Source of the DNA: Caecitellus pseudoparvulus | Lineage: Eukaryota; Protista; Bigyra: Bicosoecida | Assembly: GCA_965644315.1 (NCBI GenBank) | Contig: CBFFRQ010000212.1 | Location: forward strand, 72,090 to 136,089 | Length of the DNA stretch: 64,000 nt | Direction of reading: 5' to 3' | Shown: piece by piece, positions 9,326 through 32,491 of the stretch | Position numbering within the stretch: position 1 is the stretch's first letter | Layout: every line of letters starts with the position of its first letter | The notes under the pieces: generated by a model | The model's input: the letters and a program-made list of their open reading frames with translations, nothing else | Databases searched by the model: none | Told to the model about the DNA's origin: nothing | Made by a program: the position numbers and the translations under genes

Positions 9326-9909
9326 GGGGGACAATAAATCCATAAATGAATTTATGAGCGATATGTCTCAACTGCTGCCGCAGTTTGCGACTAAAAACAG
9401 ATATATTTTTATACTATATTTTTAGACTATATCTATAAATATTATTCTTAGATATATTTATATTATATCTATAACACTTATTAGACACTATCCCTATAAA
9501 AACAATCTCTTATAAACCCTTTAATATATTTTTTACTTACTTTTTACTACTATTTTATAAGTGTTATCTTAAGGGTTATCACTACAATAAATAGAAATAA
9601 TATAAAAAATATAATAAATATATATATATATATTTTTTCTGAGACTATTCTTAGCCCTTATCTGACAATCAGTCAAAACAAAATTGAAGCAATCAACCAT
9701 CCATCCAAACACCCTATTTTAGAAACAATCAAAGGAGGCGAAATGACAAAATAAAAAGATACATTTTAAATCACTTATTCATATATCATTTAACACTAAA
9801 TCCATTATAACCCTTAACACTTAATCACTAAATCACTTAATCACTAAATCAGACATAGCGTGGGGCGTGTGCGAATATATAATAAAAAACACTCTCTCAC
9901 ATTTTAAAA
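9326..9909 (+). repeat. Left terminal inverted repeat (584 bp)
   Basis: Reverse complement of 31908-32491; one mismatch seen (9766/32051). Confidence 0.95.
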
Positions 9910-9998
9910 TATAAAATATGAAAATCATAAAAATATATCTATGATAAAATATCTAAGAAAATTTCAAAAATCTCTAGAAAAAAAAATTCTAAAATAAA

Positions 9999-10035
9999 AA
10001 AATATGTTTAAAGAAAAAATATTTTATCTAGTATA
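9999..10035 (+). promoter_or_regulatory. 37-bp TCTA-containing promoter cassette (identical copies at 12070-12106 and 12964-13000)
   Basis: AAAATATGTTTAAAGAAAAAATATTTTATCTAGTATA just upstream of three ATGs; variant upstream of 31871 on the minus strand. Confidence 0.8.
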
Positions 10036-10042
10036 TTATATA

Positions 10043-11764
10043 ATGGATATTCAACAACCAAAATTCGCAATTGATAAACTTATTAAAATGTATGAAGAAG
10101 AAGCAATAGAAGACTTAATAAAAAAAGCACGTAATAAGAATATAACAGATGATGATTTATTATTAAAATGTAAAGACTATATATCTAAAACCATTTTTAA
10201 ATGTGAAGATGCCGAAAAATACATAGTTAATGATAAATTCATATCTGATAAAATTTTTAATAAAAAATTACAAGTGTTCCCTAAGCCTTTAAAGTATTGG
10301 TTCAAAAATTCATATATTGGATTTAAAAAAGCAGTTGTTAAATTTCATCACGAAGAATTAAAAGAAAACGAATTTAACTTATTACCACCTCTCAAATTTA
10401 AACCTGAACCATACGAACAAACATCAGACGATTTAAAAGAGAAAGTTGATTATTTATTAAAAAATTATTTCTTACGTGTCTTATCAAATGGAAACGAGGA
10501 GAATTATAATTATTTAATTAAATGGATAGCTAATATGGTTCAAGGTAATAAAAATACGTCTATGATAGTTTTAAAAGGTCCTGAAGGTTGCGGTAAATCT
10601 ACATTAATTAGATTTATTGAAGATATGCTAGGGCTTAAGAATGTTATTAATTCATCATCTCAACCACTAATTGAAAAATTTAATATGGAACTAATGGCTA
10701 AAGTTTGCGTATACTTTGAAGAACTCACAGGAGGAACAACAAGAGGACAAAAAGCAGCAGCAGCAGCAAGACTAAGAGATTATATCACGAATCCATATTT
10801 AAACTATGAAGAGAAAAATAAAAACCCATTAGAAAATATTAAGAATGTTTCAAATTTTATTTCTCTATCAAATGAATATTACGCAATTAAAGACGACCAA
10901 GGCAGACGATATTTTATTTTAGATATTGACTCAAGCTTATTAGGCAATAATGAATACTGGGATAATATTCATAATAATTATGTTCATAATGAAAAAATTT
11001 CAAAAGCATTATTTAATTTTTTTAGTAGTGTTGATATTTCAGATTTTCAACCACTTAAAATGCCTATAACTGATTCAAAAATTAAAGCTCATTTAAAATC
11101 TTTTGACCCTTATATATCATTCATAAGAGAAAAATATTTATTTAAAAATAAAGGAATAGAAAAAATAAAATGTAGAGATTTATTTTTAAAATATGCCACC
11201 TATTATGAAAAGGTATATAAAGAAACTATAAACACTAAATCACGTAAAACATCAGTTTTTTTCTATGATAGGTTAGAACATTGGGGGATAAAAAAATATT
11301 CTAAAAAATTAGACGGTTGTAATATTTATAAAATTTCATTTGAGGAATTAAAGAAAATATCAGAAAATTATAAATGGAACTTTAAATCAGACTATGAAGA
11401 CGAAGAAGACGAAGAAGACGAAGAAGAAGACGAAGAAGAAATAGATTTTCAAGAAGAAGAAACAGAAAATAACCACAAACCAGATTATAAATATCAAGCG
11501 TTAAAATATAAAAAAATGTATGTAGAACAAGCACAAGAACTAAAAAAATTAAAGGAAGAATTAAGAGCGTTAAAATTAAATATTATTAAAAAAGAAGAGG
11601 ATAAATACGAGGATGACAGCGAAGATGAAGACAGCGACGATGAAGAAGAGATAATAACTTTATCAGATAAACACCAGAAATTAAATAAAAGTTTAAGTAG
11701 TATGACAGCGGATAAAATGTCTAAGAATTCAGAACCACAAGATTTATTTAAAATTTCAATATAA
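10043..11764 (+). CDS. Superfamily 3 helicase (D5-like primase-helicase C-terminal type)
   Basis: YLIKWIA, Walker A GPEGCGKST, FN..L, FEE, LSN, GRRY; acidic tail; ATG 10043 follows the promoter cassette. Confidence 0.85.
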   Translation: MDIQQPKFAIDKLIKMYEEEAIEDLIKKARNKNITDDDLLLKCKDYISKTIFKCEDAEKYIVNDKFISDKIFNKKLQVFPKPLKYWFKNSYIGFKKAVVKFHHEELKENEFNLLPPLKFKPEPYEQTSDDLKEKVDYLLKNYFLRVLSNGNEENYNYLIKWIANMVQGNKNTSMIVLKGPEGCGKSTLIRFIEDMLGLKNVINSSSQPLIEKFNMELMAKVCVYFEELTGGTTRGQKAAAAARLRDYITNPYLNYEEKNKNPLENIKNVSNFISLSNEYYAIKDDQGRRYFILDIDSSLLGNNEYWDNIHNNYVHNEKISKALFNFFSSVDISDFQPLKMPITDSKIKAHLKSFDPYISFIREKYLFKNKGIEKIKCRDLFLKYATYYEKVYKETINTKSRKTSVFFYDRLEHWGIKKYSKKLDGCNIYKISFEELKKISENYKWNFKSDYEDEEDEEDEEEDEEEIDFQEEETENNHKPDYKYQALKYKKMYVEQAQELKKLKEELRALKLNIIKKEEDKYEDDSEDEDSDDEEEIITLSDKHQKLNKSLSSMTADKMSKNSEPQDLFKISI

Positions 11765-11806
11765 GATTTTTAATATTTAAGAAAAATAATTTTCTATATT
11801 CAATTA

Positions 11807-12055
11807 ATGAATATTGAAAATTCTTTAAAACCAGAATCAGGAGAAAAGAAAATAACACCATCAAAAGAACCAGAAAAAGTCAAAGAATATAATAAGAAAT
11901 ATTACGAAAAAAACAAAGACCGAATTTTAAAACAAATGAACCGGGTTATAAGGTGTGATATTTGCGATAAAGACGTTAAATTTTATAATTACCCTAAACA
12001 CTGCCGAGGATTAAAGCATAAACACTTAAAGATAATGAAAGCTTTTGAAAATTAA
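11807..12055 (+). CDS. Small basic zinc-finger protein
   Basis: KEYNKKYYEKNK helix then CDIC..x12..H..x5..H. Confidence 0.65.
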   Translation: MNIENSLKPESGEKKITPSKEPEKVKEYNKKYYEKNKDRILKQMNRVIRCDICDKDVKFYNYPKHCRGLKHKHLKIMKAFEN

Positions 12056-13000
12056 AAAAATATCTAAATAAAATATGTTTAAAGAAAAAATATTTTATCT
12101 AGTATATTATATATAATGGATTTTATGAATTTTTTTCAAGGTTCTTTATTTTCTAATTTAGAAAATAACAACGTATTTTATGATAGATATAAAAATAAAT
12201 ATAATATTGTTTGTATAAAATATGATATGAAAGATATTAAAGAAGACCCACATAATGAGAAATGGAATTATGATTTCGTTTCTGGATTAAAAGATTTAGA
12301 TTTAAGCTTCGTCAAAGAATACCCCGATAAAGACTGGTGTTATTTCTCATTATCAAAACTAATAAAAAATAAAAAAGATTTTGAATTCGTGAAAAAATGT
12401 CCGGATAAAGACTGGTATTATTTCTCATTATCAAAATTTATAAAAAATAAAGAAGATTTTGAATTCGTCAAAGAATACCCGGATAAAAATTGGGATTTTA
12501 AATATTTTTCAAATTTGAATTTTATAAATAGTAATATCATAAATTCTATTCATTCTGAGAAATGGAACAAAAACGAATTATTATTTAATGATAATTTTGA
12601 TATAAGCTGGGTTAATGAATGTCAAAATATAAAATGGAAATTTGGATTAATAACATTATCTAGAAATTTTAATATAGAATGGTTATATAAATATCCACGT
12701 AAAAAATGGGATATATCATCAATTGAAAAAAAGGATTGTTTCTTTTATGATTTAATATCAATTTTTCCACATTTCAAATGGTCTTCTAAAATACTAAACG
12801 ATTATAAACAAATTCAACAACATAAAGAAGAACATAAAATAAATTATAAAGAGGTATTAAATGAATTCTTAGCGGTGATTTATCATCCAGATAATGCGGA
12901 ACGTTTAGGATTATTTGATAATGTTTCAAAAGATGATTTTGAAAATTAAAAAAATATCTAAATAAAATATGTTTAAAGAAAAAATATTTTATCTAGTATA
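12043..13000 (+). repeat. 64-bp perfect direct repeat (12043-12106 / 12937-13000) bracketing the repeat-protein gene
   Basis: Includes FEN-stop codons plus the promoter cassette; read directly. Confidence 0.9.
12116..12949 (+). CDS. Trp-rich repeat protein (FVKxxPDKDW repeats), paralog 1
   Basis: ~25-aa repeats; C-terminal YHPDNAERLGLF shared with 31092..31871 and 30529..31065. Confidence 0.75.
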   Translation: MDFMNFFQGSLFSNLENNNVFYDRYKNKYNIVCIKYDMKDIKEDPHNEKWNYDFVSGLKDLDLSFVKEYPDKDWCYFSLSKLIKNKKDFEFVKKCPDKDWYYFSLSKFIKNKEDFEFVKEYPDKNWDFKYFSNLNFINSNIINSIHSEKWNKNELLFNDNFDISWVNECQNIKWKFGLITLSRNFNIEWLYKYPRKKWDISSIEKKDCFFYDLISIFPHFKWSSKILNDYKQIQQHKEEHKINYKEVLNEFLAVIYHPDNAERLGLFDNVSKDDFEN

Positions 13001-13009
13001 ATATATATA

Positions 13010-15001: not shown

Positions 15002-17008
15002 ATGTTATTTAATATGAACTTGAATAAATTGAAAAAACAGGATTTAAAAGAGTTTTTTAAATATCAATATGGAAAATATCCACCCTCAAATTTTAAAAAG
15101 AAAGATATTATAACAGTTTTAAGCCACGACATACAAACAGGAGCAGGAATAAAAGATTTTTTCAGAAGCAAAGCAAATTCAACATTTTCATTTTTAAAGA
15201 AAGGTTATAACAAGGTAAAAGACACATTTAAACCAGTTCAAAAAATAGAAGATACAATAACAAAGCCTTTTGATTATAGAACACGTTTAACAAATGAAAG
15301 CAGACGAACATTAGAAGAAGTAGGAGATAAAGTAATTAATAATATAACAATTATAAAAACACCAGTAAATAAAACGTTAGTCAGTATTTTAGATAAATTA
15401 TCATTTGGATATTTTAAACGATTAATGGAAAATCACGGATTTGATAAATTTTTTCATTTAGCCTTAGTTTTATCAATAGATGGGCGATATGTTATTTTAG
15501 AGAAACTAGCCGAGGTTAATATATCATTCAATTATAAAAAGTCATATACAGAATTAAGCGAGGCAACAACAGTTGAAAACTATAAAGGAGGTTTAACATT
15601 AAATCAAATGGTGAATAAAACCCGAGAATTTATGGGCGATAAATTATTTTTTGACTATGACGCCTTCACTAATAATTGTCAAAATTTTATTATGTCAGTA
15701 TTAACGGCAAACGGGCTTGACAACCAAAGAAATAAAGAATTTGTTTTTCAGGATATTAAAGAGATTTATAATGAATTAGAAAAGAAAGCGTCTTATTTAT
15801 CACCTTTCGCTAAAATGACAACACGTTTAGGGGCTTGGTGGAATAAACTAACAGGAGCCGGAAAAAATCAAGCTGATATATTAACAAAGAAAAAACCTAT
15901 AAACTATGGAATAGAAACAAACGAAATTATTAAAATGTTATCATTCAATTATAAAAATGTTGAAGTTATGGGCTCATCAGCTATTAAGGCTACTTTATAT
16001 CCTTCTGATTTTGATTTATACGAGGTTATAAAGGTTAAAAACTTAAAAGATTTAGAAAATAAATTTCAAGATAAAGTATTAAAAATAGTTCAATCTAAAA
16101 ATATATATTTAGGCGATGTTAAAATAGGAGAGTTTCCAGAATTTAAAATTTTAAACAATGATATATATTATAAAAACGGGCGATTAATAGGATATAACCA
16201 AAAACAAATTAAGAAAGATATAAAAGATAAATTATATTTTTTAACAAAACAAGAAAAACAAGAATTATTAAAACTCATTAAAGCAAAACCAACACCCGAC
16301 GAATTAGATATTATAAAAAATAAATTAAGATATCATATTTTAAGATGGACTCCAGAAGAAATATTGAACGGTTCTAAAGAATTATCAAAAAATAAATATA
16401 TTAGTTTATTAGATGCTTTTAAAAGTGATGGATTATTTAAATTAGACGTTGTAGGATTTACCAGAAATAAATTTATTGACTTTTCTATAATCTATGAATT
16501 ACGAGACGAGAAAACAAATAAAAGAATAAATAATTTTATGGTTAATGTGAAAGATAATTTAAACGACCAAATAAGAACATATAAAATAAAGGGTCAATAT
16601 TTCAAAGCTCTAAAGCGTGAATACTCAAAATTAAAACATACTTTCACATATACAAAAAATAAAGAAACCAAAGAAAAAGCATTAAGAAGATTAAAAGAAC
16701 TAACGGCATTTTTTAACGGTCAAGCAGGTATTATATATAGTGTTATTAATGATATTGAGGCGTTATTAAATGTTATGAAAATATCTAAAACTGAATATTC
16801 AAATAATGAAAAAATAATAAATGTTATAGAAAGTTTTATATATAGATTATCTAATATTTATTCTGTTAATGAATATTTAAGAAATGAAAAGAATATTTTA
16901 TTAAGCATAAAAGCAATATTGAGACATCCTGATAATATGGAGGAAAACTTACAAGATTTACAAAATATATTATTTAAGATATTAAATAAATTTTCTAAAT
17001 CTATATAA
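15002..17008 (+). CDS. Fusion: permuted papain-like peptidase domain plus Pol-beta-type nucleotidyltransferase
   Basis: FFHLAL...YDAFTNNCQNF (His before Cys); VMGSS..x..YPSDFD and KLDVV NTase motifs. Confidence 0.6.
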   Translation: MLFNMNLNKLKKQDLKEFFKYQYGKYPPSNFKKKDIITVLSHDIQTGAGIKDFFRSKANSTFSFLKKGYNKVKDTFKPVQKIEDTITKPFDYRTRLTNESRRTLEEVGDKVINNITIIKTPVNKTLVSILDKLSFGYFKRLMENHGFDKFFHLALVLSIDGRYVILEKLAEVNISFNYKKSYTELSEATTVENYKGGLTLNQMVNKTREFMGDKLFFDYDAFTNNCQNFIMSVLTANGLDNQRNKEFVFQDIKEIYNELEKKASYLSPFAKMTTRLGAWWNKLTGAGKNQADILTKKKPINYGIETNEIIKMLSFNYKNVEVMGSSAIKATLYPSDFDLYEVIKVKNLKDLENKFQDKVLKIVQSKNIYLGDVKIGEFPEFKILNNDIYYKNGRLIGYNQKQIKKDIKDKLYFLTKQEKQELLKLIKAKPTPDELDIIKNKLRYHILRWTPEEILNGSKELSKNKYISLLDAFKSDGLFKLDVVGFTRNKFIDFSIIYELRDEKTNKRINNFMVNVKDNLNDQIRTYKIKGQYFKALKREYSKLKHTFTYTKNKETKEKALRRLKELTAFFNGQAGIIYSVINDIEALLNVMKISKTEYSNNEKIINVIESFIYRLSNIYSVNEYLRNEKNILLSIKAILRHPDNMEENLQDLQNILFKILNKFSKSI

Positions 17009-17607
17009 TGTCAATGAATAATAACGAAGTCAGAGAATTATTATTAAAACTCGAACAAAATAGAACGTTAGAAAATCAAAGCGGGGCGGGATGTTGTGAA
17101 GAAAGAACGGTAGGAGGTCAAGTTTACTACGGTGATTTAAAAAACAAAGAAAAAACATTCGATAATATTAATTATAAACGTTTAGACGGTTTATTAGGAA
17201 GCAATAGAAGCCTTGAAAAACCACCTAAACGAGGAGGTAGAGTTCAAGGCGATTTTTTAAATGGTGGAGCTACCAAACTAGGGGAAGAATACGCCCGGGA
17301 ATTACAAAAACATTTTAAGCATTTAGAAGGCGGGGAAAGCTTCTGGGATGGTTTCAAAAGAGGTTTTAACGCAGTATGGAAACCCGCAGGAAAAGTTATT
17401 AAAACAATTTCACCCGTGCTGCCATATGGTGATAAAATTAAAGCAGGTTTAGAAGCGGTAGGATATGGAAAAGCAAAAAAGAAAAAGCGTCAACCATCAG
17501 CAAAACAAAAAGCACGAGGACAATTAATAAAAGAATTAATGAAAAAATACGGCTTTACATTAGGTCAAGCCTCAAAATATATCAAAGAAAATAAATTAAT
17601 GGATTAA
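17008..17607 (+). CDS. Putative virion core/membrane-lytic precursor protein
   Basis: Several xxGG sites, LEGG|ESFWDGFKRGF amphipathic helix, basic C-terminus. Confidence 0.55.
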   Translation: MSMNNNEVRELLLKLEQNRTLENQSGAGCCEERTVGGQVYYGDLKNKEKTFDNINYKRLDGLLGSNRSLEKPPKRGGRVQGDFLNGGATKLGEEYARELQKHFKHLEGGESFWDGFKRGFNAVWKPAGKVIKTISPVLPYGDKIKAGLEAVGYGKAKKKKRQPSAKQKARGQLIKELMKKYGFTLGQASKYIKENKLMD

Positions 17608-17666: not shown

Positions 17667-19343
17667 ATGACAGAAAATAAATTTAATATGTTTCATAACG
17701 AACAGGCGGAACGTATGCGACGCCAAGTTATGGAAGGGTTAAAAAATACTCAAAACTATATTAATTATTCATTAAGGGGGCAATATCAAAACCAACCCAA
17801 GCCAAATCCAACAGGTAGTTTTAATCGTATGTCTTCTCATTCTTTTAATACTTCTAATTTATCACAAATGAAACAAATTGAAGATTTAACTGGAGGGGCA
17901 CAAACAAGAGAAGGGCATAATTTAATAATGAATCAATTAAAAAATAGGGCTTTACAATTAGAGCAATTAAGTGCAGGATTACCAGCACAACAAAGACAAC
18001 AACAAACAGCACAAGAAATACCCGATACCGTTTCAACCTCTTTTGAGTTATTCTTTAGTTCTTTAACAAGTGCTGATTTTTCTTTATCTTTCATCTCATC
18101 AATGAATAAAGACGCAAAACAGGCATTAGGCAATTTAAAAGCCTACGGTTTAGATTTAGATAAACAAACATTGGAAAGATACGCACAAATTACAGAAGCA
18201 CATTTAGATAATTATTTAACCAATATAGATGAATTGTATTTAGGGCGTGATATTTTCGGACCAAATCTAACAACTAAAACAGAAAAGAAAAAAGCTGGGG
18301 ATTTATACTTGGAATATTTAGAGCGTTTAGATTATTACGAGGTTATATTTAAAATTTATTTAACTTTACAAGCCCTTATTAATAGTTTTGGAACTTCACC
18401 AGATACCAGAAAACAGGCATTTAATGGAGAATTTAAAAATATTATTATGGCTCCGTTAGATAGTATCATAACTCCAGAAATACAAACCATAAACGAAGAA
18501 GCAAAAAAAGGCATAAAAACATTAAAAGACATTCTACCAAAAAACGCATATCAGGAAATAGAGGAATATTTCGAAAGTGAATCAGCAGCAGCACAAGCAG
18601 ACGGCACAGATTATTATAAATTAAGAAATTCTAAACCACGTTTAGTAGAAAGAATTAAGAAACTAGAGCAGAGAGCAAAGAAAGCAACAAAACAAACAGC
18701 GAATAAAATCAAAAAACAAATTGTAGAACTTCAAGAAGCAGTAGAAGAAGCATCAGACGAAGAGGACTCAGAAGACGATTTACCAGAAGCACCACAACCA
18801 CCCAGAACGAAACGAGCACAAACACCAGCAAAAGCAAGGGCACAAAAAGAACCAGCAGTTCCAGCAACACCTGCCCCAGTCGTTCCAGCTTCTCCTGTTT
18901 CTCCACTTGATGCGACAATCCGGCGACTATATGACGATTTACAAAGAAAAGAAAAACGATTATTAGACCATATAGAAAAATACGGGAACGATGATGAAGC
19001 TATTGAAAACAAAAGAGCCAGAAACCATAGAAAAGATTTAAGAAAGCAATACAACAAAGCAAAAAGAGACTTTGAAGCACAAGAAGAAGCACGGGAAAAA
19101 GCACGAGAAACACCAACCAAGCCACCAACCGAAGGTGTTAATAAGCCAAGTGGAGCTGCCGTAGATGATGAAACAGACGGAACAGGAGATGACGACGAAG
19201 GAACACTAGGAGATTTAGACCCATCATTATTTGGAGAAGGAATGAATCCCGCAAAATTCACAACTAATTTTTTAAAAGGTTCCGGACCAATGTTTAAACA
19301 AATAGAACAAGTCTTTAAAGGTAAAAGGCGTTTATGGAAATAA
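17667..19343 (+). CDS. Hypothetical coiled-coil virophage protein
   Basis: 558-aa ORF with charged coils and Pro/Ala linker, LTGG site. Confidence 0.65.
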   Translation: MTENKFNMFHNEQAERMRRQVMEGLKNTQNYINYSLRGQYQNQPKPNPTGSFNRMSSHSFNTSNLSQMKQIEDLTGGAQTREGHNLIMNQLKNRALQLEQLSAGLPAQQRQQQTAQEIPDTVSTSFELFFSSLTSADFSLSFISSMNKDAKQALGNLKAYGLDLDKQTLERYAQITEAHLDNYLTNIDELYLGRDIFGPNLTTKTEKKKAGDLYLEYLERLDYYEVIFKIYLTLQALINSFGTSPDTRKQAFNGEFKNIIMAPLDSIITPEIQTINEEAKKGIKTLKDILPKNAYQEIEEYFESESAAAQADGTDYYKLRNSKPRLVERIKKLEQRAKKATKQTANKIKKQIVELQEAVEEASDEEDSEDDLPEAPQPPRTKRAQTPAKARAQKEPAVPATPAPVVPASPVSPLDATIRRLYDDLQRKEKRLLDHIEKYGNDDEAIENKRARNHRKDLRKQYNKAKRDFEAQEEAREKARETPTKPPTEGVNKPSGAAVDDETDGTGDDDEGTLGDLDPSLFGEGMNPAKFTTNFLKGSGPMFKQIEQVFKGKRRLWK

Positions 19344-19433
19344 AAGATTTACAAAAACATTAAAAAACTTATAATAAAATATCTAGAAATTACAATATGA
19401 TATATAGTTTTTTTAAGTTTTTGTAAATCTTTT
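19342..19433. terminator. Intergenic stem-loop after ORF 17667
   Basis: AAAAGATTTACAAAAAC (19342-19358) pairs with GTTTTTGTAAATCTTTT (19417-19433); function inferred. Confidence 0.5.
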
Positions 19434-19449
19434 TTTCTAAATCTTAATA

Positions 19450-20232
19450 ATGCCTAGTTTTGAATTACTTGATTATAAAAACTCTAAATTAAAAAAAGAT
19501 TATACACCGGTCGCCATTGTTAAAGGTGATGAAAACCACAAAGACTTTAATAAATTCTTATGTTTAACCGATAAAAACACGGGTCATAAAAGCATAAAAC
19601 TACCTGACGATTTAATTTTTAATATTCTCCCATCAACAAAAAGGGGAAAACGTGATATTTTTTATATTGCTGGTGCTTCTGGTTCTGGTAAATCATATCA
19701 AGCAAAAATTATTTGTAATAATTACCATAGATTAAATCCGGATTTGCCTATATTTTTAATATCTAAACTAGAAGAAGACGAAACATTGGACGAATTGGAT
19801 TATATCCACCGTGTAGATATTGAAGATTTTATAGAAGAATTTAATATCAATAATGAAGATTTAGCGGGATTCTATATTTTTGATGATTTTGAAACATTAG
19901 AAAAACCTATTTTAGATAAAGTCATTAAAATTATTGATGATATATGTATTATGGGGCGTCATAAAAATATAACTCTTGGTTATATCAGCCATAACCTGAC
20001 AAACTACAAAAAAACGAGATTAATTCTCTCAGAAAGTAGCCATATTGTGGTATTTCCTCAAAGTTCCGCACCACATCCATTAGGCTATTTATTAAAGAAT
20101 TATGGAGGAGCAGATAAAAGCGAAATAAAAAAACTTAGAAAGCTTGGGCGTTGGTGTGCGGTCTTTACAAACTATCCGAATTATATATTATCTTCAAATT
20201 ATGCTTATCTTTTACATCAGGACGAAGATTAA
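19450..20232 (+). CDS. FtsK-HerA family genome packaging ATPase
   Basis: GASGSGKS, IFDDFE, MGRH, ISH; first gene of morphogenesis block. Confidence 0.9.
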   Translation: MPSFELLDYKNSKLKKDYTPVAIVKGDENHKDFNKFLCLTDKNTGHKSIKLPDDLIFNILPSTKRGKRDIFYIAGASGSGKSYQAKIICNNYHRLNPDLPIFLISKLEEDETLDELDYIHRVDIEDFIEEFNINNEDLAGFYIFDDFETLEKPILDKVIKIIDDICIMGRHKNITLGYISHNLTNYKKTRLILSESSHIVVFPQSSAPHPLGYLLKNYGGADKSEIKKLRKLGRWCAVFTNYPNYILSSNYAYLLHQDED

Positions 20233-20888: not shown

Positions 20889-22025
20889 ATGTTAAATTCT
20901 ACAATGTATCAAGAAGATAAAAATATTTATTATAATATTGATATTATCAACGGAAGAAGCACGAGCCAAGGTAAGATTAACGACCCTATAGCCAGTTTTA
21001 GTGAAACAAGAGACGTGCCTTTAATTAATGATGCTAGTAAATATAAAATGTCTATTATTCGTTTTACTATGAACGGTATTAATGATTTACCTTTATTTAT
21101 TCCAGTAATTGAAGAAGGACAAACAAACCCTAATAAAACCGTTTATAAAATCACAGTTAAATATAATCATATAGGCGGGAACGAATACGAATACACACAG
21201 CCCGTAATATGGGAAAGCAACGATTCAAGCTTATCAGCACCTTCAAATTTTGAAACACAAGGACAAGACGCATCTCAAGAATATTACTACTGCCACACAT
21301 ACGACCATTTTATAAAATTAGTAAATACAGCTATCACATATTCTATAACTCAACTAAACGCATTAATAAAAGTTGATTATCCAGCATTTACAGATTTAAT
21401 AAGCCCTTTTATAGTATATAATAACGCAAATAAAAAATTTGATATTTACTACCCCGCAGATAATGACGGCGGTTTCTCGTTCTTTTTTAATTCAAATTTA
21501 TATAATTTATTATCACATTATCCCCACGAATACAACGATTTAGACGAAACTAAACAATATAGAATTATCCCCCGTAATTATCAGGGTTTAAACTCTATCA
21601 CATTAAACAGCGTAGATTATATTAAAATAGAACAAGAAGCCATAAGCCTTGGCACATATTGGAGCCCTATATCTTCTATTGTTTTTACGTCTTCTTTACT
21701 TCCTATTATTTCTGAGGGTGTTTCTCAGCCTGTGAAATTTGGTAATTCTAACAATGCTAATGCCGTTTCTTCAGTTTCTAGTTTTGAACCTATTATTACT
21801 GATATTAGCTTAACTCTAGACGATGCCTATAACTATAAGGACTTTTTATCATATATCCCGGGTGCTGAGTATCGCTTCGTATCTCTTACAAATTCTAAAC
21901 AACCTATAAGAAATATTAACATTAATATTTATTGGAAATATAGATTAACGGGGCAATTAGTGCCTTTAAAATTATCTAATTTATCAAATGTATCTATGAA
22001 ATTTTTATTTCAGCCTAAATATTAA
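20889..22025 (+). CDS. Virophage minor capsid (penton) protein
   Basis: IYYNIDIIN, SIIRF, LPLFIP, WSPISSIVFTS.LLPI, IITD, YIP.AEYR, IYWK; between protease and MCP. Confidence 0.9.
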   Translation: MLNSTMYQEDKNIYYNIDIINGRSTSQGKINDPIASFSETRDVPLINDASKYKMSIIRFTMNGINDLPLFIPVIEEGQTNPNKTVYKITVKYNHIGGNEYEYTQPVIWESNDSSLSAPSNFETQGQDASQEYYYCHTYDHFIKLVNTAITYSITQLNALIKVDYPAFTDLISPFIVYNNANKKFDIYYPADNDGGFSFFFNSNLYNLLSHYPHEYNDLDETKQYRIIPRNYQGLNSITLNSVDYIKIEQEAISLGTYWSPISSIVFTSSLLPIISEGVSQPVKFGNSNNANAVSSVSSFEPIITDISLTLDDAYNYKDFLSYIPGAEYRFVSLTNSKQPIRNININIYWKYRLTGQLVPLKLSNLSNVSMKFLFQPKY

Positions 22026-24014: not shown

Positions 24015-25916
24015 ATGTATAATAATGCAAAATATCAATATGAAATGAATAAATTAGAAGTGTATAGTGAACCAGAAACAGTTGAAAACGTGGCAAGATT
24101 AAAAGAAGCTATTAATTTTTTTTCAACTGCGGGGACTGCTTACGGAACTCAAGATACTATCAACGCAAATACTGCTTATAAAGCTATGTTCTTTTCTCAA
24201 CCTCTAAAAGATGTTTTAAAAGTTCCAGATGATAAGGGCACATATTCACGATTAAGCTTAAATTATTATTGCGAAATTGAAACAACACTAAACGAACAAT
24301 TAAATTTAAATGTCAGGTTAGATTATTACGATAAAGACGAAAATTATATTTCATCTAGTAATGAAGCCGATATTTTAAACACCGACCATTTAATAGATAT
24401 TCAAATAGTAGGGGACGCCTTACAATTTCCAGCGAATACAAAATATATTTATTTGGCAGCTAAAAATAACGCAAACTTTAACACCACATTTAAATTTAAA
24501 CACGCAACGGCTAAAACTTCAACAGCTCAAGAAGTATTATTAGCAGACCCGCCCACTAATTCAAATCGTTTATTTGTAATACTCGGCAATAGTAATCAAG
24601 GCACTCCTGCTCCAATTCCTCCATCTAATCCATCATATGAAACCGTCACCCTTGATAAAGCCTCTAACCCTTCTTTAATCTTTGATAATGGTTCATCAAC
24701 AATGGATTTAACATATAATAGCGATGATGAATTAAATATTAACGGAAATTTAGGATTTGGAGGGACTGAAGTTTTACTAAATCAAGACGATAATAATAAA
24801 ATTTTAACTTTATCAGCTAAAAACGCCTCAACCGCTCAATTTAGAATTGGAAATGACCCAAATAAACAATTAACTTATTTTTATGAAACAGGGGCAATTT
24901 ATCTGAGTCCTAGTTGTCGTATTTTTCAAACTGACACAGCTTTTAATGATGATTGTTTAACCAATAAAAAATATGTTGATGATGAAATAACTAATAAATG
25001 CGTCCAACTTACAGGAAATCAAAGCATAGCAGGAAATAAGACATTTTCAGGAATTACAAGCATAGAAGCTTTGCTAGATATGAATAATAATAAAATTGAA
25101 AATGTAGCAACACCAACTATAGGAACTGATGGAGCTAATAAAGCTTATGTTGATAGTGTTGCAGGTGGTAGCAACTTCACAAATAATATAAATTTGAACG
25201 GTAATGATATTGAAGACGTTGGAGAAATTCAAGCCGATAAATTAACGCTTATTCGTCCTGATGGTTCGTTAGAATCATATTGGATAGAACAATTAAGCAA
25301 CGAAACACGATATGTTAATATGTCAGGTGGTAGCTCTTCAGAACACGCCTTTTTCTGTAATAATTTAGGTGGAGCGGTTCAGCGTTTCTCAGTTTCTAAT
25401 ACAGAAATTAAAACAAGCGTTAAATTAGATATGGGTAATAGGAATATTGAATGGTTAAAGGATGGAACAACACAATATCACGCCATAAATTACGGGCAAT
25501 TATTAGCAAGAACAGCAAATTTTCAAAGTTATAAAATAGCTCTTAATGATGTTTTCACCGCTAACACCTGGAAAACATTTGTTATGGATACTGTTATCCC
25601 TGTTGAATCATACCAAACAGGAACTTATATTTTATCTGCTACTATAAATTTAGTAATAGACGGACCAGGACAAACAACAGCCGTTGTATTTGGTAGATTA
25701 ACTACCCCTGCTTCTGCTTCTGGTGTTGATACAACTATAGGGCGTATATTTATGGAGGCTGAGGCATCTAAAAATTACGGACAAATTACATTAAGCAAGG
25801 TTATGTCTGTATCTTCAGCAGGTAATTTTCCCACTTGGAATGTATCAGTCAAAAGTGATATAAACGAAAATATAGACGTTGAAATAACATATAAAATGGA
25901 TAGAATATCAAATTAA
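24015..25916 (+). CDS. Fibre/spike-like protein
   Basis: TNKKYVD, NQSIAGNKTFS, LDMNNNKIENVATP..DGANKAYVD; modules shared with 1966..4410. Confidence 0.7.
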   Translation: MYNNAKYQYEMNKLEVYSEPETVENVARLKEAINFFSTAGTAYGTQDTINANTAYKAMFFSQPLKDVLKVPDDKGTYSRLSLNYYCEIETTLNEQLNLNVRLDYYDKDENYISSSNEADILNTDHLIDIQIVGDALQFPANTKYIYLAAKNNANFNTTFKFKHATAKTSTAQEVLLADPPTNSNRLFVILGNSNQGTPAPIPPSNPSYETVTLDKASNPSLIFDNGSSTMDLTYNSDDELNINGNLGFGGTEVLLNQDDNNKILTLSAKNASTAQFRIGNDPNKQLTYFYETGAIYLSPSCRIFQTDTAFNDDCLTNKKYVDDEITNKCVQLTGNQSIAGNKTFSGITSIEALLDMNNNKIENVATPTIGTDGANKAYVDSVAGGSNFTNNINLNGNDIEDVGEIQADKLTLIRPDGSLESYWIEQLSNETRYVNMSGGSSSEHAFFCNNLGGAVQRFSVSNTEIKTSVKLDMGNRNIEWLKDGTTQYHAINYGQLLARTANFQSYKIALNDVFTANTWKTFVMDTVIPVESYQTGTYILSATINLVIDGPGQTTAVVFGRLTTPASASGVDTTIGRIFMEAEASKNYGQITLSKVMSVSSAGNFPTWNVSVKSDINENIDVEITYKMDRISN

Positions 25917-25934: not shown

Positions 25935-26207
25935 ATGATTATTGATATTAAGAAAAGTAATAGAAAAAATAAACGTTTTATGGCTTTATTTGATGATGGA
26001 ACAAAAACACATTTTGGATATGATGGAGGTAAAACATATATAGACCATAAAAATAAAAAAAAGCGTGATAATTACAGAAAAAGACACGAAAAGGATTTAT
26101 TAACATATGACCCTAAAAGAGCCGGTTATTTATCCTATTTTTTATTATGGGGTAATGATGATAATTTAAAAGATGCCGTTGAAACATATAATAAAATGTT
26201 TTTTTAA
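25935..26207 (+). CDS. Small basic protein, DUF5754-like
   Basis: KKS.RK.KRF...THFG....YIDH...R.NY.KRH...AGYLS..LLWG pattern seen in large DNA viruses (recalled, not searched). Confidence 0.55.
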   Translation: MIIDIKKSNRKNKRFMALFDDGTKTHFGYDGGKTYIDHKNKKKRDNYRKRHEKDLLTYDPKRAGYLSYFLLWGNDDNLKDAVETYNKMFF

Positions 26208-26242: not shown

Positions 26243-27067
26243 ATGGATAGATTCATTTTTAATTATAATGGTAATAAATATCTAGAAACAAAGAAATATT
26301 TAAATGATTTTGTTGAAAATTCTAATTTTGATTATATTGCTGAACCTTGTGCCGGTATTTTTGGATTTAGTAGATATTATTTTTTAAAACATAAAGATAA
26401 TGATAATATTAAATTTTTAATTAATGATATTGACCCACGTATAATTAAATTTTATAATGATTTAAAAAATGATTTTGACGGAACATTAAATTATATTATT
26501 GATTATAAAAATAAATTATATGATGAATTAGAACTAAGCAAAGAAACAGACGATAAAAAATTAACTCAATATTTAAGAAAAAAAGAAAATAAAATAAAAT
26601 ATGAAAATTATTTATTAAAATTAATATCTTCTAAATGTCTTGGTATTTGTGGAATTGATAAATTTGAAACAAAAATAAACAATTTCTTAAAAAAGAAAGA
26701 CGATTATATTAAAATGTTTTCAAAATGTGAATTTTCTAATTTAGAACTTAACGATTTTTTAAAACAAACTAAAAAGAAATATAAAAATAAAAAAATATTA
26801 TATTATTTTGACCCCCCTTATTTTAATTCTTGTAATACTGAATACGCATACACTTTCAAAGGAAAAGATAAAAAAATAAAATATACTGACGGGACAACTA
26901 TCTATTTAGATATATATAAATTTATGAATGATAATAAAAATTGTTTATTTGTTATGAATAAAATTGACGTTTTAAATTACATTTTTAAAAAATTCTATTA
27001 TGAAGAATACGGGGGAATTTATCAAATTAATAAAAATAAAAAAGTTCATATTATATATAAATCATAA
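26243..27067 (+). CDS. DNA adenine methyltransferase, D12/Dam-like
   Basis: YNGNK, EPCAG, INDID, YFDPPY. Confidence 0.85.
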   Translation: MDRFIFNYNGNKYLETKKYLNDFVENSNFDYIAEPCAGIFGFSRYYFLKHKDNDNIKFLINDIDPRIIKFYNDLKNDFDGTLNYIIDYKNKLYDELELSKETDDKKLTQYLRKKENKIKYENYLLKLISSKCLGICGIDKFETKINNFLKKKDDYIKMFSKCEFSNLELNDFLKQTKKKYKNKKILYYFDPPYFNSCNTEYAYTFKGKDKKIKYTDGTTIYLDIYKFMNDNKNCLFVMNKIDVLNYIFKKFYYEEYGGIYQINKNKKVHIIYKS

Positions 27068-27126: not shown

Positions 27127-27690
27127 ATGAATTTAGAAACAGGATTAATGGTAGGCGGCGCCCTAGTATCTTTAGGCGTTAAAAGCTCTTATAATTGTTG
27201 GAAAAATGGAAGAGCTAAAAAATTTAAAGCAGTAAAATTTGGGGCTGTCGTGATGAGCTCTAAAACTGGCAAATCGAAAATGTGTAGTCAACTTAAAGGA
27301 AATAATAAAGTTCTTTTAGTAGATGTTGGCGAAAGTGTGCCACGTGAAAACTCAGTAAATTCTAACGTAAATTATTTAGTAAAAGCTAAAGAATATGTTA
27401 ATAAACTTAGAAAAGATTTAAAAGACCACTCATTATTATTAGTTGTTTCTTCTATTGATGAGGCTAAATTTCTTGGTGTTGAAGATAAAGCAATCGTATG
27501 CTTAACCCCTTCGAATGATTTATTTAGAAAAATCACGCAAAATATCCCCGCTGATGAATTAAAAAAAGTTGAATCTAACAGATTAGAATTAATCAGCAGC
27601 TGCGGTCAAGATTTATTAAATATCTTTTCTTCTTATGATGAATTATATAATGTTATTAAAGCTACTTTCAAATTATCAAATAAATTTTAG
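27127..27690 (+). CDS. Membrane-anchored degenerate P-loop protein
   Basis: Hydrophobic N-terminus; AVVMSSKTGKS...LLVDV. Confidence 0.5.
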   Translation: MNLETGLMVGGALVSLGVKSSYNCWKNGRAKKFKAVKFGAVVMSSKTGKSKMCSQLKGNNKVLLVDVGESVPRENSVNSNVNYLVKAKEYVNKLRKDLKDHSLLLVVSSIDEAKFLGVEDKAIVCLTPSNDLFRKITQNIPADELKKVESNRLELISSCGQDLLNIFSSYDELYNVIKATFKLSNKF

Positions 27691-27723
27691 ACCTAATAAA
27701 AATATATTCTAAGATGTTATAAT

Positions 27724-27942
27724 ATGGTTAATGTATGGATTCAAGCATTAAAAGAATATAATAAAGGTAATGGTGCCTGGTGTCTCCCAAGAAAAGGAAC
27801 TAAAGAATATGAAAAAGTAAGGCAAATTATGGACGCTCTCAAAGGTGTTAAAACAAATCAAAAACAAAAAGAAGAGACAAATAATAAAACGCCTAGTAAA
27901 GGAAGAATGGAATATTTAAAAAAGCTAAAAGACAAGGTCTAA
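27724..27942 (+). CDS. Small basic protein (homolog of 5596..5724)
   Basis: NVWIQALKEYN...LPRKGTKEYEKVRQIM; TCTA upstream. Confidence 0.7.
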   Translation: MVNVWIQALKEYNKGNGAWCLPRKGTKEYEKVRQIMDALKGVKTNQKQKEETNNKTPSKGRMEYLKKLKDKV

Positions 27943-27986
27943 TTAATGAACTTGACGATTTTTTAACAAGTGCTAGATACCATTTT

Positions 27987-28190: not shown

Positions 28191-28221
28191 ATATATTTTT
28201 ACACTGTCTATAAAAATATAT

Positions 28222-28671
28222 TTATATTTTAATCTTTTCAATTGGTTTTAGTTCTGTTATGGGTATTTCTAAATGAAGTTTATTTATATCTCTGTCAAAT
28301 CTTTGAATAAATCTTTTTTTGAATGTATCAAATAATTTTGATTTATACTTAATGTAATATAAACCATTTGTGAAATTGAATAAAAAATAAAAACGTTTCT
28401 TAGGATGTTGTAATTTAGCAGCTTTTATATGTCTTATCTTTTCTATATTTATTATTGTTGTTGAGTATTTATCATATGTATTATTTCTGCTTTTCAATTC
28501 TATATTATATTTTTCGTCTTGGGTTGTAAAATCAAAAGGAGAATATAAACTTTTAGTTTTGTAAAATGTGTGTTTGGTTGTTTTGTTTATTGTTTCTAAT
28601 ACTTGAACTTCTTTTTCTAAACCCTCTTTTAAACTTTTTTCAATGCTCCTTAAATCACGGTGAGACTTCAT
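28222..28671 (-). CDS. PD-(D/E)xK nuclease-family protein
   Basis: E...YSPFDF...NIELKSR. Confidence 0.7.
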   Translation of the reverse strand: MKSHRDLRSIEKSLKEGLEKEVQVLETINKTTKHTFYKTKSLYSPFDFTTQDEKYNIELKSRNNTYDKYSTTIINIEKIRHIKAAKLQHPKKRFYFLFNFTNGLYYIKYKSKLFDTFKKRFIQRFDRDINKLHLEIPITELKPIEKIKI

Positions 28672-29756
28672 TATAAAGCCCTAGAAAATATATTTAATGA
28701 TTTATTTTTTTCTAGAGTTTTTTTATACTTTTTCACTAAATCAGGAACCTGAGAATTTATGCGCCGGGCTAGTTCATATGTTTGCTTTTTGTATCCCTTC
28801 CATTTTATACGATAATATTTTTTATTCTTTATCTTCTTCTCTCCTGTTATTTTTTCTACTTCATATCGTTTATTATCTTCTATTTCTTCTGGTTTATCTT
28901 GTTCTTTTGGATTATATAAAAGTTGATTTCGTGTGTATCCTGTATTATCTATACCTTCAATCGTATATATTGGCGGTTGTCCTGGTGTAATTAGAACACC
29001 GTCTATTTTTCTTAAATTGTTTTCATATCTAAAATCACCCGTTCTAAATGTTCCGTGTAATCTTTGACCGTCTATATTTTGTGGATAATCTAAAATGATT
29101 TTTACTAAATCGCCACGTTTCAATATGTCTTTTGGTATATGTGGCATTTTGAAAAATTCTTTAATTCCTATTTTTGGTCGTTTTAAAATTATTTCATTAT
29201 ATAATTTCATTATTTCTGGTATAGTTTCTACCCATTCTTTATTTTCTTGTTTATGGATTAGCTCAAAGTTTTTTTGCTTTAGTGCTATGATACGCCCTAA
29301 CGTTTTATTTAATGCTTCAACGACTGCTGTTTGCCTATGTCTTGCAACTCTTGAATTTTTCAACGTTGCATTATCTGAACTCTCAAAATATTTTTTAACA
29401 TATCCTTTAAATTCTTTGCCATCATCTGTTTTAAATATCACGGATGGAGGATTTAAATATTTTCGTTTCCATATTCTCTTTAACGCTTTTAATACGGTTT
29501 TGCTTTCTTTATTTTTTAATGGCTCAGCGTCTGCGGCTTTTGTTGCTACATCAATAATAACTAGTAAATATTTATAGCCTTTATCCTCGGGTAAATATAA
29601 CAAATCACCTTGTTGAATACTATCTTTAATTAATGCTTTATGTTTTGGTATCTCTTCGCCTTTGTCTTTCTTTGGAGGTTTGGTTAATGTTGTTAATTCT
29701 GATTTTTTAGAATCTTTAAAAATTTTCAATTCTTCCAAAATCTTATCTGATATCAT
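28671..29756 (-). CDS. Retroviral-type (rve) integrase with C-terminal chromodomain
   Basis: QGDL, IIDVATK, TDDGKEF, VEALNKTL (DDE); YEVEKI....YYRIKWKGY. Confidence 0.92.
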   Translation of the reverse strand: MISDKILEELKIFKDSKKSELTTLTKPPKKDKGEEIPKHKALIKDSIQQGDLLYLPEDKGYKYLLVIIDVATKAADAEPLKNKESKTVLKALKRIWKRKYLNPPSVIFKTDDGKEFKGYVKKYFESSDNATLKNSRVARHRQTAVVEALNKTLGRIIALKQKNFELIHKQENKEWVETIPEIMKLYNEIILKRPKIGIKEFFKMPHIPKDILKRGDLVKIILDYPQNIDGQRLHGTFRTGDFRYENNLRKIDGVLITPGQPPIYTIEGIDNTGYTRNQLLYNPKEQDKPEEIEDNKRYEVEKITGEKKIKNKKYYRIKWKGYKKQTYELARRINSQVPDLVKKYKKTLEKNKSLNIFSRAL

Positions 29757-29789
29757 TAATAATATATAGATTAATATATTATTAGTAAT

Positions 29790-30347
29790 TTAAAATTTAT
29801 GGTCTGGATATTCCTCTTTTAAGTATTTAATTAAATCTTCTTTTGTTTCATATCTTGTATAAAATCCGTTATTTTTAATTCTGGTTATCATTTTAATAAA
29901 AAACTCATCTTTTAATAATTCTTTTAATTCATAAGATACCGTTTTTATATTCTTTGGTAGCTTGGGTAATATCTGAGATTTTAAAATATAATGTTGTTGA
30001 ACGAAAGCCTCCGGACAATTTGTCCCGAGTGTATCAATAATAAACTGCCGCTTGGGTAAATCATCAATATATAAATTTATAACTTCTAATAAATCTATTA
30101 ATTGTTCGAAGGTTTTAATTTTATTTTTAATATCTTCTGTTTCTGCTTCAACTTCTAATTTAACTTTTTCTAAATTCTCTAATTTGGTTTCTTTTCTGAT
30201 TTTTATAGATGGTTCATTAAATATTGAGTAATAAAAGAAATACGAATAATCCTCAATTTTACAAAATTTATTTATTAATGAGTGATAAGAGTTTAACTCC
30301 CTCTTATGAATGCTTAATAATGTCTTTAGACTTTTTAAAGTTGTCAT
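29790..30347 (-). CDS. Hypothetical virophage protein
   Basis: 185-aa ORF with TCTA upstream. Confidence 0.6.
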   Translation of the reverse strand: MTTLKSLKTLLSIHKRELNSYHSLINKFCKIEDYSYFFYYSIFNEPSIKIRKETKLENLEKVKLEVEAETEDIKNKIKTFEQLIDLLEVINLYIDDLPKRQFIIDTLGTNCPEAFVQQHYILKSQILPKLPKNIKTVSYELKELLKDEFFIKMITRIKNNGFYTRYETKEDLIKYLKEEYPDHKF

Positions 30348-30528
30348 TATATAAATTTAGAATATTTATTTTTTAAATTATTTTTTAAATTTAAATAAAT
30401 TAGTTTTAAGAAATATATTTTCTCTAGATTATTATATATATCAAGATGTAATTTTTATAGTGCATTAAATCAACGTTGTATCATAAGCCATAATATCCAT
30501 TTTTTATAAGTATTAAATAATATAATAT

Positions 30529-31065
30529 TTATAAAAAATCATCTTTTGAGACTGTTTCAAATAATCCTAATCTTTCGGCATTGTCTGGATGATATACAAC
30601 CGTTATTAATTCATCTAAAACATTTTTATATTTTACTTTGTGTTTTTCTTTATGTCTTAGAATTTTTATATATTCTTTTAATGTATTTGAAGACCATTTA
30701 AAATTATCAAATATTTCTATTAAATCATAAAAAAAAATGTTTTCTCTTTCTATTCCTTCGGCACTCCATTCCTTATCGGGATATTTAAAAAGCCAATCAA
30801 TAGTAAAATTTTTAAATTTATGAAATATCTTAAAATTTAAATTACCATCATTATATTTATCTATTAGTTCTATTGTTAATCCTGATTTTTTTATATCCTT
30901 AATATCTTCAATTGTAATTTTTGAATTATCAGCCCCTTCTAATTTTGTAATTTCAATAAATTTCTCTCTTACGCATTCTATATTACCACAACAACTTAAT
31001 AAAATATCATCTTCTATATTATCACAGGTTATTATATCATAATATAAATAAAAATCAATATTCAT
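30529..31065 (-). CDS. Trp-rich repeat protein, paralog 3
   Basis: WLFKYPDKEW and YHPDNAERLGLF C-terminus. Confidence 0.7.
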   Translation of the reverse strand: MNIDFYLYYDIITCDNIEDDILLSCCGNIECVREKFIEITKLEGADNSKITIEDIKDIKKSGLTIELIDKYNDGNLNFKIFHKFKNFTIDWLFKYPDKEWSAEGIERENIFFYDLIEIFDNFKWSSNTLKEYIKILRHKEKHKVKYKNVLDELITVVYHPDNAERLGLFETVSKDDFL

Positions 31066-31091
31066 TATAGACCTATATAAAATAAAAATCT

Positions 31092-31871
31092 TTAAACATT
31101 TATAAAAAAATCATCTTTTGAAACATTATCAAACAAGCCTAAACGTTCCGCATTATCTGGATGATAAACAATTGATAAGAATTCATCTAATACATCTTTA
31201 TATTTTATTTTGTGTTTTTCTTTATGTTCTTGAATTTGTTTATAATCATTTAATATTTTAGATGACCATTTAAAATGTGGAAATATTGATATTAAATCAT
31301 AAAAGAAACATTCTTTTTTTTCAATTAATGATATATCCCATTTTTTACGTGGATATTTATATAACCATTCTATATTAAAATTATCAGATTTTGTCATAAG
31401 TCCAAAAATCCATTTTATATTTTGACATTCATTAACCCAGCTTATATCAAAATTATCATTATATAATAATTCGTTTTTGTCCCATTTAGCATCATAAAAA
31501 TAATTTATTATATCACTATTTATAAAATTCAAACTTGAAAAATATTCAAAGTCCCATCCTTTATCAGGGTGTTTTTTAACAAATTCAAAATCCTCTTTAT
31601 TTTTTATAAATTGTGATAATGTGTAATAACACCAGTCTTTATCGGGATTTTTTTTTACAACTTCAAAACCCTCTTTAATTTTTTTATTTCTAATTCTTAT
31701 TGATAATATTTTATAATCCCAGTCTTTATCGGGGTATTGTTTAACAAAATTAAAATCTAAATCTTCTTCTATTGCTGAAACCCATTCATAATCCCATTTC
31801 TCGTTATGTGGGTCTTTTTTAATGGCTTCCATCTTATAATCCTCATTAACATATATAAAATAACCAGTCAT
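31092..31871 (-). CDS. Trp-rich repeat protein, paralog 2
   Basis: Near-identical C-terminal half to 12116..12949. Confidence 0.75.
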   Translation of the reverse strand: MTGYFIYVNEDYKMEAIKKDPHNEKWDYEWVSAIEEDLDFNFVKQYPDKDWDYKILSIRIRNKKIKEGFEVVKKNPDKDWCYYTLSQFIKNKEDFEFVKKHPDKGWDFEYFSSLNFINSDIINYFYDAKWDKNELLYNDNFDISWVNECQNIKWIFGLMTKSDNFNIEWLYKYPRKKWDISLIEKKECFFYDLISIFPHFKWSSKILNDYKQIQEHKEKHKIKYKDVLDEFLSIVYHPDNAERLGLFDNVSKDDFFINV

Positions 31872-31907
31872 ATAATATACTAAATAAAATATTTTTTCTT
31901 GAAACCC

Positions 31908-32491
31908 TTTTAAAATGTGAGAGAGTGTTTTTTATTATATATTCGCACACGCCCCACGCTATGTCTGATTTAGTGATTAAGTGATTTAGTGATTAAGTGT
32001 TAAGGGTTATAATGGATTTAGTGTTAAATGATATATGAATAAGTGATTTACAATGTATCTTTTTATTTTGTCATTTCGCCTCCTTTGATTGTTTCTAAAA
32101 TAGGGTGTTTGGATGGATGGTTGATTGCTTCAATTTTGTTTTGACTGATTGTCAGATAAGGGCTAAGAATAGTCTCAGAAAAAATATATATATATATATT
32201 TATTATATTTTTTATATTATTTCTATTTATTGTAGTGATAACCCTTAAGATAACACTTATAAAATAGTAGTAAAAAGTAAGTAAAAAATATATTAAAGGG
32301 TTTATAAGAGATTGTTTTTATAGGGATAGTGTCTAATAAGTGTTATAGATATAATATAAATATATCTAAGAATAATATTTATAGATATAGTCTAAAAATA
32401 TAGTATAAAAATATATCTGTTTTTAGTCGCAAACTGCGGCAGCAGTTGAGACATATCGCTCATAAATTCATTTATGGATTTATTGTCCCCC
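31908..32491 (-). repeat. Right terminal inverted repeat (584 bp)
   Basis: Ends ...GGATTTATTGTCCCCC then TSD CTGTT. Confidence 0.95.

Follow-up and report, generated by a model that had tools for sequence, protein, structure and literature searches.

Complete endogenous virophages with terminal inverted repeats (TIRs), target-site duplications (TSDs), a protein-primed family B DNA polymerase (pPolB) and an rve integrase are known by the dozen (PMC8547959; PMC10120064; bioRxiv 10.64898/2026.07.28.741278); elements of such design are already well described and the phenomenon itself is not new. Integrated mavirus has TIRs of 615/616 bp and TSDs of 5-6 bp, and its proposed trigger is the late transcription factor of a giant virus (10.1101/068312). 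The core proteins of the endogenous mavirus-like elements (EMALEs) all belong to the mavirus clade, and the motif TCTA, the late promoter of Cafeteria roenbergensis virus (CroV), marks EMALE type 4 in Cafeteria (PMC8547959); particles produced on reactivation were inhibitory to CroV in subsequent rounds (PMC8547959; PMC10945749). For Halocafeteria, 36 complete endogenous copies are described, the elements there showing very low expression (bioRxiv 10.64898/2026.07.28.741278), and complete endogenous virophages with TIRs are also known from other protists (PMC10120064). The swapping of replication and integration modules between capsid lineages has been described as well (10.64898/2026.10.13.758929). 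For the family Burtonviroviridae, Roux et al. 2023 (PMC9952930) give no isolate and tabulate a single Caecitellus-derived member, which is partial and unpublished. Virophage defense is so far established for mavirus-type elements in Cafeteria, and other virophage orders and hosts may or may not share it. The subject is a stretch of 64,000 nucleotides (contig CBFFRQ010000212.1; hereafter the window, to which all positions refer) containing an AT-rich element that a sequence-only reading had described as a complete, apparently intact integrated virophage, potentially reactivatable and acting, by analogy with mavirus, as antiviral defense.

The element and its insertion site

The element occupies positions 9326-32491 (23,166 bp) and has a GC content of 27%; in the adjacent 1-kb bins, the value is 64% (left) and 53-76% (right) (Table 1). 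Its TIRs are identical at 583 of 584 positions, the single mismatch being 9766 versus 32051, and their similarity breaks off sharply on both the inner and the outer sides. Among the duplication lengths of 3 to 9 nucleotides tried for the flanking direct repeat, only 5 nt agrees. Between the TIRs, 21 hardly overlapping open reading frames (ORFs) fill 94% of the sequence; none of them contains an internal stop, and inspection of the sequence revealed catalytic motifs in the integrase, polymerase, helicase, ATPase and protease. The near-identical repeats with GGGGG/CCCCC ends, the 5-bp duplication and the uninterrupted core genes, all of which had been reported from the sequence alone, are therefore borne out. 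The near-identity of the TIRs, together with the low GC content amid a GC-richer flank, leaves little time for drift. The virophage identity of the element is virtually beyond doubt, and the insertion is very probably real, recent and intact.

Taken by itself, the CTGTT duplication might be a matter of chance because the flank is of low complexity and rich in CTG and GTT. Public contigs of four (X1, X3, X5 and X7) out of 21 listed runs were aligned to window positions 7400-9560, that is, the left junction side; X1 and X3 share an organism label and may represent a single campaign that includes the source, and X5 and X7 come from two more studies. In three of these runs (X1, X5 and X7), a contig with an empty site leads on from 9325 straight to a sequence that agrees fully with window positions 32497-32526 and carries the 5-mer once, so that the doubt about a chance duplication is lifted. 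The X1 contig differs from the flank at 3 of 340 positions and may come from a close paralog because the flank is a multi-copy repeat. As judged from the flank translations, the insertion interrupts a host reading frame (8885-9325) that resumes in frame at 32497. It is very improbable that the locus is an assembly artefact, with a free or collapsed virophage contig attached to host flanks via the repeat. The flank is indeed repetitive, the TIR is multi-copy and the filled left junction is bridged by none of the contigs listed from the four runs; nevertheless, the flanks are contiguous in three runs with the duplication exactly at that point, and the TIRs cannot be one collapsed unit used twice because they differ at one base. 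In addition, X3 has a loose end at the TIR tip, mixed and made up of two contigs, that looks like the right flank in reverse complement; this argument is weak, and X3 may itself be the sample of origin.

At least four further flanks also abut the TIR tip, one common to X1 and X3, two in X5 and one in X7, along with mixed groups of flanks in X3 and X7; a search for the four single alternative flanks across the window found none of them there. The same TIR tip on at least four other flanks implies that the element is mobile and polymorphic. The reading as a complete, seemingly intact integrated virophage thus holds and is reinforced by the empty-site contigs, by the contigs with other flanks and by the TCTA motif discussed below. 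The summed depth of the TIR exceeds that of the flank approximately 10-fold in X1 and at least 50-fold in X3, a ratio of depths that is no copy number and that hints at many copies. An X3 contig leads from TIR position 9533 back to where the TIR begins, two additional letters lying in between, at a depth of 29, near that of the flank; possibly, one copy is inserted within the TIR of another copy.

The high depth of the TIR and the presence of more than one insertion site fit intragenomic copying equally well as re-infection. The element might be an intact virophage that now spreads within the genome as a self-synthesizing, Polinton-like transposon, or one that is induced without host benefit, the capsid genes being intact only through the youth of the copies; the combination of pPolB, rve integrase and TIRs is the Polinton kit. 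We consider this alternative unlikely, given that the morphogenesis genes share 36-58% identity with their counterparts in virophage contigs from metagenomes and given the palindrome avoidance and the promoters described in the following sections.

The right flank adjacent to the element (32497-38000) is a decayed region of lower GC content (52-63%). Frames near 36564-37321 are reminiscent, in their motif, of the end of a CACTA/Plavaka-type transposase; this possible remnant has no match in the libraries searched, including Pfam.

Gene content and family placement

The element encodes the virophage-type major capsid protein (MCP), ATPase and cysteine protease that serve as virophage criteria in PMC9952930, along with the penton that is expected in addition, and its length falls within the expected range of 15-45 kb of double-stranded DNA. 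The MCP matches the Pfam families Sputnik_MCP_1st (2e-43, 148.9 bits) and MCP_V20_C (6.7e-45, 153 bits), and its sole match in the PDB is Sputnik V20 (3j26, 3e-21); structures of the mavirus MCP are present in the PDB as well. The protease alone has no match in Pfam or the PDB; its residues H73, D88 and C146 are unchanged across 8 aligned sequences. The gene order ATPase-protease-penton-MCP-fiber is also found in related contigs. The earlier analogy with mavirus stands for the lifestyle genes (pPolB, superfamily 3 (SF3) helicase and rve integrase) and fails for the capsid, which is of the Sputnik type and groups with contigs labeled Burtonviroviridae. Directly before the ATPase gene, there is a strong intergenic hairpin (19339-19436; z -5.9), which we take to be a possible transcript end of the mimivirus kind.

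The best relative of the MCP among 364 matches is 52% identical. The MCP tree (FastTree, 86 rows), built from relatives found by search with partial and duplicate rows, other families and mavirus not included, places it in a 17-row clade with SH-like support of 100 to which the locus L024 (IMGVR_UViG_3300031224_000055) also belongs. The resemblance to L024 extends to the MCP (43%), penton (52%), protease (55%) and ATPase (52%), to the order of the five morphogenesis genes, to two common genes of unassigned function and to an rve-type integrase; for L029, the identity is 43% in the ATPase and 45% in the protease. Both these loci are classified with the ATPase marker in Table S1 of Roux et al. 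2023 (PMC9952930). Among 18 dataset ids looked up there, four loci (L024, L029, L050 and L061) are labeled, all as Burtonviroviridae, with three of the four labels BLAST-based; three other ids are unlabeled and the rest are absent or outside the rows listed. These comparisons are indirect and agree with one another; by them, the element likely belongs to Burtonviroviridae (Priklausovirales). The rve integrase is present in 3 of 94 related loci (L004, L024 and L083, the latter being the same contig as L024) and pPolB in none, which does not establish its absence because most of these loci are fragments of 4-20 kb. Single-query searches of viral contigs with the MCP, pPolB, integrase and repeat protein found no relatives, the TIR tip has no exact match in JGI metagenome contigs and the MCP has no match in the phage collection. 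The literature searches found no complete integrated Burtonviroviridae genome that combines pPolB, an rve integrase and TCTA promoters; the supplements of the Halocafeteria preprint and the datasets of PMC10120064, where close relatives may be present, lay outside these searches.

Between the TIRs (9910-31907), palindromic 4-mers are avoided when the observed counts are compared with those expected from synonymous shuffles (GATC, 1 versus 38; CATG, 0 versus 26; GTAC, 1 versus 26; TGCA, 7 versus 44), and GGCC is avoided as well. The pattern is like that of free virophage contigs and unlike that of the host flank, which argues for a recent history as a free virus and against spread as a transposon. 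The avoidance was rejected as a special trait of this element, being widespread among the scored virophage loci of at least 7 kb. Several palindromic 4-mers are nearly gone from both viral elements in the window (the second is described below) and from most of the scored virophage contigs, each with its own set, which suggests that restriction systems, whether of giant viruses or of hosts, exert selection; such sets might help to pair virophages with their partners. A narrow literature search for 4-mer avoidance in virophages found nothing, its broader results not having been examined.

The helicase likely starts at 10043, the longest ORF beginning at 10004, and contains no recognizable primase domain. 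In the pPolB, which has no Pfam match, motifs A, B and C were all found, motif C being HTD rather than DTD. The integrase retains D51, D111 and E147 and shares 25% identity with the L004/L024 integrase across 330 aa. The C-terminal half of the two-domain protein yields a model with a predicted local distance difference test (pLDDT) score of 94.5 and a fold matching 4xul/4ams/4amq; it matches the nucleotidyltransferases mimivirus L544 and Megavirus Mg662 as well as the V21-type proteins of YSLV5, Zamilon, QLV and mavirus. These matches identify it as an accessory gene already known from virophages, found in 25 of 79 related loci, and its candidacy as a new gene was rejected. The N-terminal half may be papain-like, judging by motif; it has no library match. 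The putative methyltransferase, which we take by its motifs alone to be a probable adenine DNA methyltransferase, has no match in Pfam, PHROGs, NCBIfam or the PDB. Three paralogous genes for repeat proteins, two of the three with 26-aa repeats, are located near both ends of the element, and two of these genes form an internal inverted repeat of 577 nt (88% identity). No family was found for these proteins in Pfam, PHROGs and further libraries, and no relatives in viral contigs. The placement of the repeat genes recalls that of the variable FNIP-repeat genes of mavirus.

Table 1. Coordinates of the virophage, its genes and the adjacent features in the window
Feature	Positions	Strand	Basis or remark
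Capsid-like fragment of second insertion	1-645		by inspection, no Pfam match
Penton-like gene of second insertion	743-1522		by inspection, no Pfam match
Host multi-copy repeat receiving the element	7948-9325		numerous variants (90-99%) in each of the four runs
TSD, left copy	9321-9325		CTGTT, 5 bp; one copy in empty-site contigs
Left TIR	9326-9909	+	584 nt, GGGGG start
SF3/D5-type helicase	10043-11764	+	Pfam DUF5906 2.6e-16; PHROG primase C-terminal half 1.9e-27; Walker A
Small protein with CxxC...H..H pattern, possibly zinc-binding	11807-12055	+	sequence; no Pfam family
26-aa-repeat protein, paralog 1	12116-12949	+	repeat sequence
pPolB, 651 aa	13010-14965	+	Atlas 0.98 to DNA_pol_B_2 clusters; PHROG DNA polymerase 2.1e-8
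Two-domain protein	15002-17008	+	N-half conserved H/E/NCQ; C-half V21/L544-type nucleotidyltransferase
Conserved virophage protein	17008-17607	+	47% over 111 aa to L004/L024
Conserved virophage protein	17667-19343	+	33% over 319 aa to L004/L024
DNA-packaging ATPase	19450-20232	+	43-58% to full-length ATPases of virophage contigs; Walker A/B conserved
Maturation cysteine protease	20272-20853	+	36-58% to proteases of virophage contigs
Penton (minor capsid protein)	20889-22025	+	Pfam V18-19 2.4e-21
MCP, Sputnik-type, 610 aa	22117-23949	+	Pfam, PDB and tree
Fiber-like protein	24015-25916	+	PHROG tail-fiber matches; same post-MCP slot in sister contigs
DUF5754 protein	25935-26207	+	Pfam 9.1e-14
Putative adenine DNA methyltransferase	26243-27067	+	DPPY motif
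Protein with P-loop-like stretch	27127-27690	+	sequence; no family
Small basic protein	27724-27942	+	one relative, in L036
PD-(D/E)XK endonuclease	28222-28671	-	Pfam PDDEXK_14 2.1e-6
rve integrase with C-terminal chromodomain	28671-29756	-	Pfam rve 3.5e-8, Chromo 2.1e-6
ORF without assigned function	29790-30347	-	ORF list
Repeat-protein paralog 3, divergent	30529-31065	-	repeat/sequence comparison
Repeat-protein paralog 2	31092-31871	-	75% identical to paralog 1
Right TIR	31908-32491	-	584 nt, CCCCC end
TSD, right copy	32492-32496		CTGTT, 5 bp

Promoter motif, host and proposed reactivation

The TCTA motif is located shortly upstream of 15 of the 21 start codons, compared with a mean of 1.7 in shuffles, 0 of 5000 of which reach 15; in the next 16-nt window upstream it precedes 1 of 21 genes, and in the window beyond, 5 of 21. 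The motif is strong in five sister contigs (L001, 4/4; L003, 3/4; L005, 3/3; L006, 4/5; L026, 4/5) and partial in L002 (2/4). Promoters bearing a giant-virus late motif speak against spread as a self-synthesizing transposon, and the motif predicts the promoter class of the giant-virus partner.

The right flank encodes ordinary eukaryotic genes (DHFR, TBC-domain, WD40, PurF, PurK and DnaJ). The PurF and CFAP52-like proteins of the flank are 98-99% identical to ENA/Logan proteins and fall into clusters with proteins that carry the label Symbiodinium sp. KB8, and the best named match of CFAP52 among 10 matches is that of Cafeteria roenbergensis (burkhardae), at 40%. With this level of identity, C. 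burkhardae was rejected as the host. Symbiodinium was rejected as well: the KB8 label is unreliable because the KB8 assembly also contains a CFAP52 of the Cafeteria cluster, and the flank is gene-dense, intron-poor and high in GC, which is not dinoflagellate-like. The host is probably a marine, bicosoecid-like flagellate other than C. burkhardae, as far as flank proteins can tell. The KB8 assembly (P0241, P0277, P0284; window 51070-57124) contains proteins of at least two other organisms, the present host and Cafeteria; mavirus-like MCPs reported for KB8 (PMC10120064) may derive from contaminating flagellates. A literature search on contamination of KB8 found no paper that addresses the matter in its title.

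These features lead us to lean slightly towards a scenario under which a complete virophage was recently inserted in the host repeat by its own rve integrase and would be switched on by a giant virus with the TCTA late promoter. All steps past integration are taken from the mavirus/EMALE04 model. The integrase would insert the element into the repeat, likely recently, with a 5-bp duplication, and the provirus would stay silent until a CroV-like giant virus infected the cell and, through a late transcription factor, activated the provirus promoters. The helicase and the protein-primed polymerase would then copy the linear, TIR-ended genome, and the ATPase, MCP, penton and protease would build particles; upon lysis, the released particles would reduce the giant-virus yield in neighboring cells and integrate at new sites. 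By this analogy, the provirophage has a little better than an even chance of being still inducible, and measurable protection of the host population, which falls somewhat short of that, can be proposed tentatively. The most far-reaching version, in which a Burtonviroviridae member with the whole mavirus lifestyle integrates actively, can be induced and acts as an antiviral provirus in a bicosoecid-like flagellate that is not C. burkhardae, appears rather doubtful.

Several points weigh against this scenario. The interior of the element could be a consensus of many copies because the TIR depth is far above that of the flank, and the filled left junction is the unbridged one mentioned above. Six of the 21 genes, including those of the protease and fiber and ORF 17667, lack TCTA in the tested window; the motif is scarce or absent in four sister contigs (L004, 4/17; L024, 2/16; L023, 1/5; L027, 0/7) and, as a 4-mer, cannot name the partner virus. 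The host lineage is based on one best named match with 40% identity. Moreover, CroV reactivated one of eight endogenous types (type 4), and did so inefficiently (PMC10945749). The seven unresponsive EMALE types, along with the low expression of the Halocafeteria elements cited above, also fit a dead-end insertion, in which the genes are intact and there is no induction from the nucleus, the partner virus being outside the host range or the repeat region being silenced as chromatin. The location in a decayed multi-copy repeat next to a second viral insertion is compatible with such a fate as well. Nevertheless, the varied insertion sites across samples indicate ongoing integration in the population, whether from this copy or from another, and we regard a dead end as quite unlikely.

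Should the most far-reaching version be true, the element would provide the first isolate of Burtonviroviridae, and it would demonstrate that a single type of promoter enables virophage orders unrelated to each other to protect different flagellates from giant viruses of the CroV kind. Provided that a culture of the host exists, the element is a practical candidate for obtaining an isolate of its family and for testing defense directly. The locus ties a probable Burtonviroviridae genome to a host by its junctions and displays insertion polymorphism across samples.

Neighboring insertion and comparison with described systems

A second AT-rich, virus-like insertion occupies window positions 1-7950, 1.4 kb to the left of the virophage. 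It contains a fiber gene 28% identical to the virophage fiber over 187 aa and a lipase-like gene, and ends in a near-perfect 86-nt palindrome (7865-7950; z -17.7); contigs of X1 and X5 pass 7948 into different sequence. This insertion is probably a Polinton-like virus (PLV) whose left part lies beyond the window. Its terminal palindrome resembles those described for the PLVs and virophages of Halocafeteria (bioRxiv 10.64898/2026.07.28.741278).

The virophage shares with mavirus and the type 4 EMALEs near-identical TIRs of about 600 bp, a 5-bp TSD, low GC content, pPolB, a short helicase, the rve integrase, the TCTA motif and a marine flagellate host (PMC8547959; PMC10945749; 10.1101/068312). 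Nevertheless, it is not an EMALE because the EMALE core proteins all group with mavirus, whereas the capsid of this element is of the Sputnik type and its nearest classified relatives are Burtonviroviridae. In further contrast to mavirus and EMALEs, the FNIP repeat gene was not detected in the element, which instead has the three repeat-protein genes near its ends, and its host differs from that of the EMALEs, with a CFAP52 that shares only 40% identity with its C. burkhardae counterpart. Like Polintons/Mavericks, the element contains pPolB and an rve integrase inside TIRs, but its MCP and penton are of the virophage rather than the Polinton type.

The virophages of Halocafeteria seosinensis, compared here by description, are similar in having capsids of a non-mavirus clade, a length of about 24 kb and TIRs, and, in some subtypes, the combination of pPolB, D5-type helicase and RVE integrase; they cluster with PLVs in host repeats, and one subclade has a giant-virus-like promoter (bioRxiv 10.64898/2026.07.28.741278). 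The Halocafeteria host differs in GC content, which is about 47% as opposed to about 65-70% here. The Caecitellus virophage of Roux, likewise known here by description, also comes from a bicosoecid genome and is a partial sequence of 19,690 bp in which no penton was detected. Compared with the described Burtonviroviridae, the present copy is distinguished by its completeness, with both TIRs, the TSD and the host flanks.

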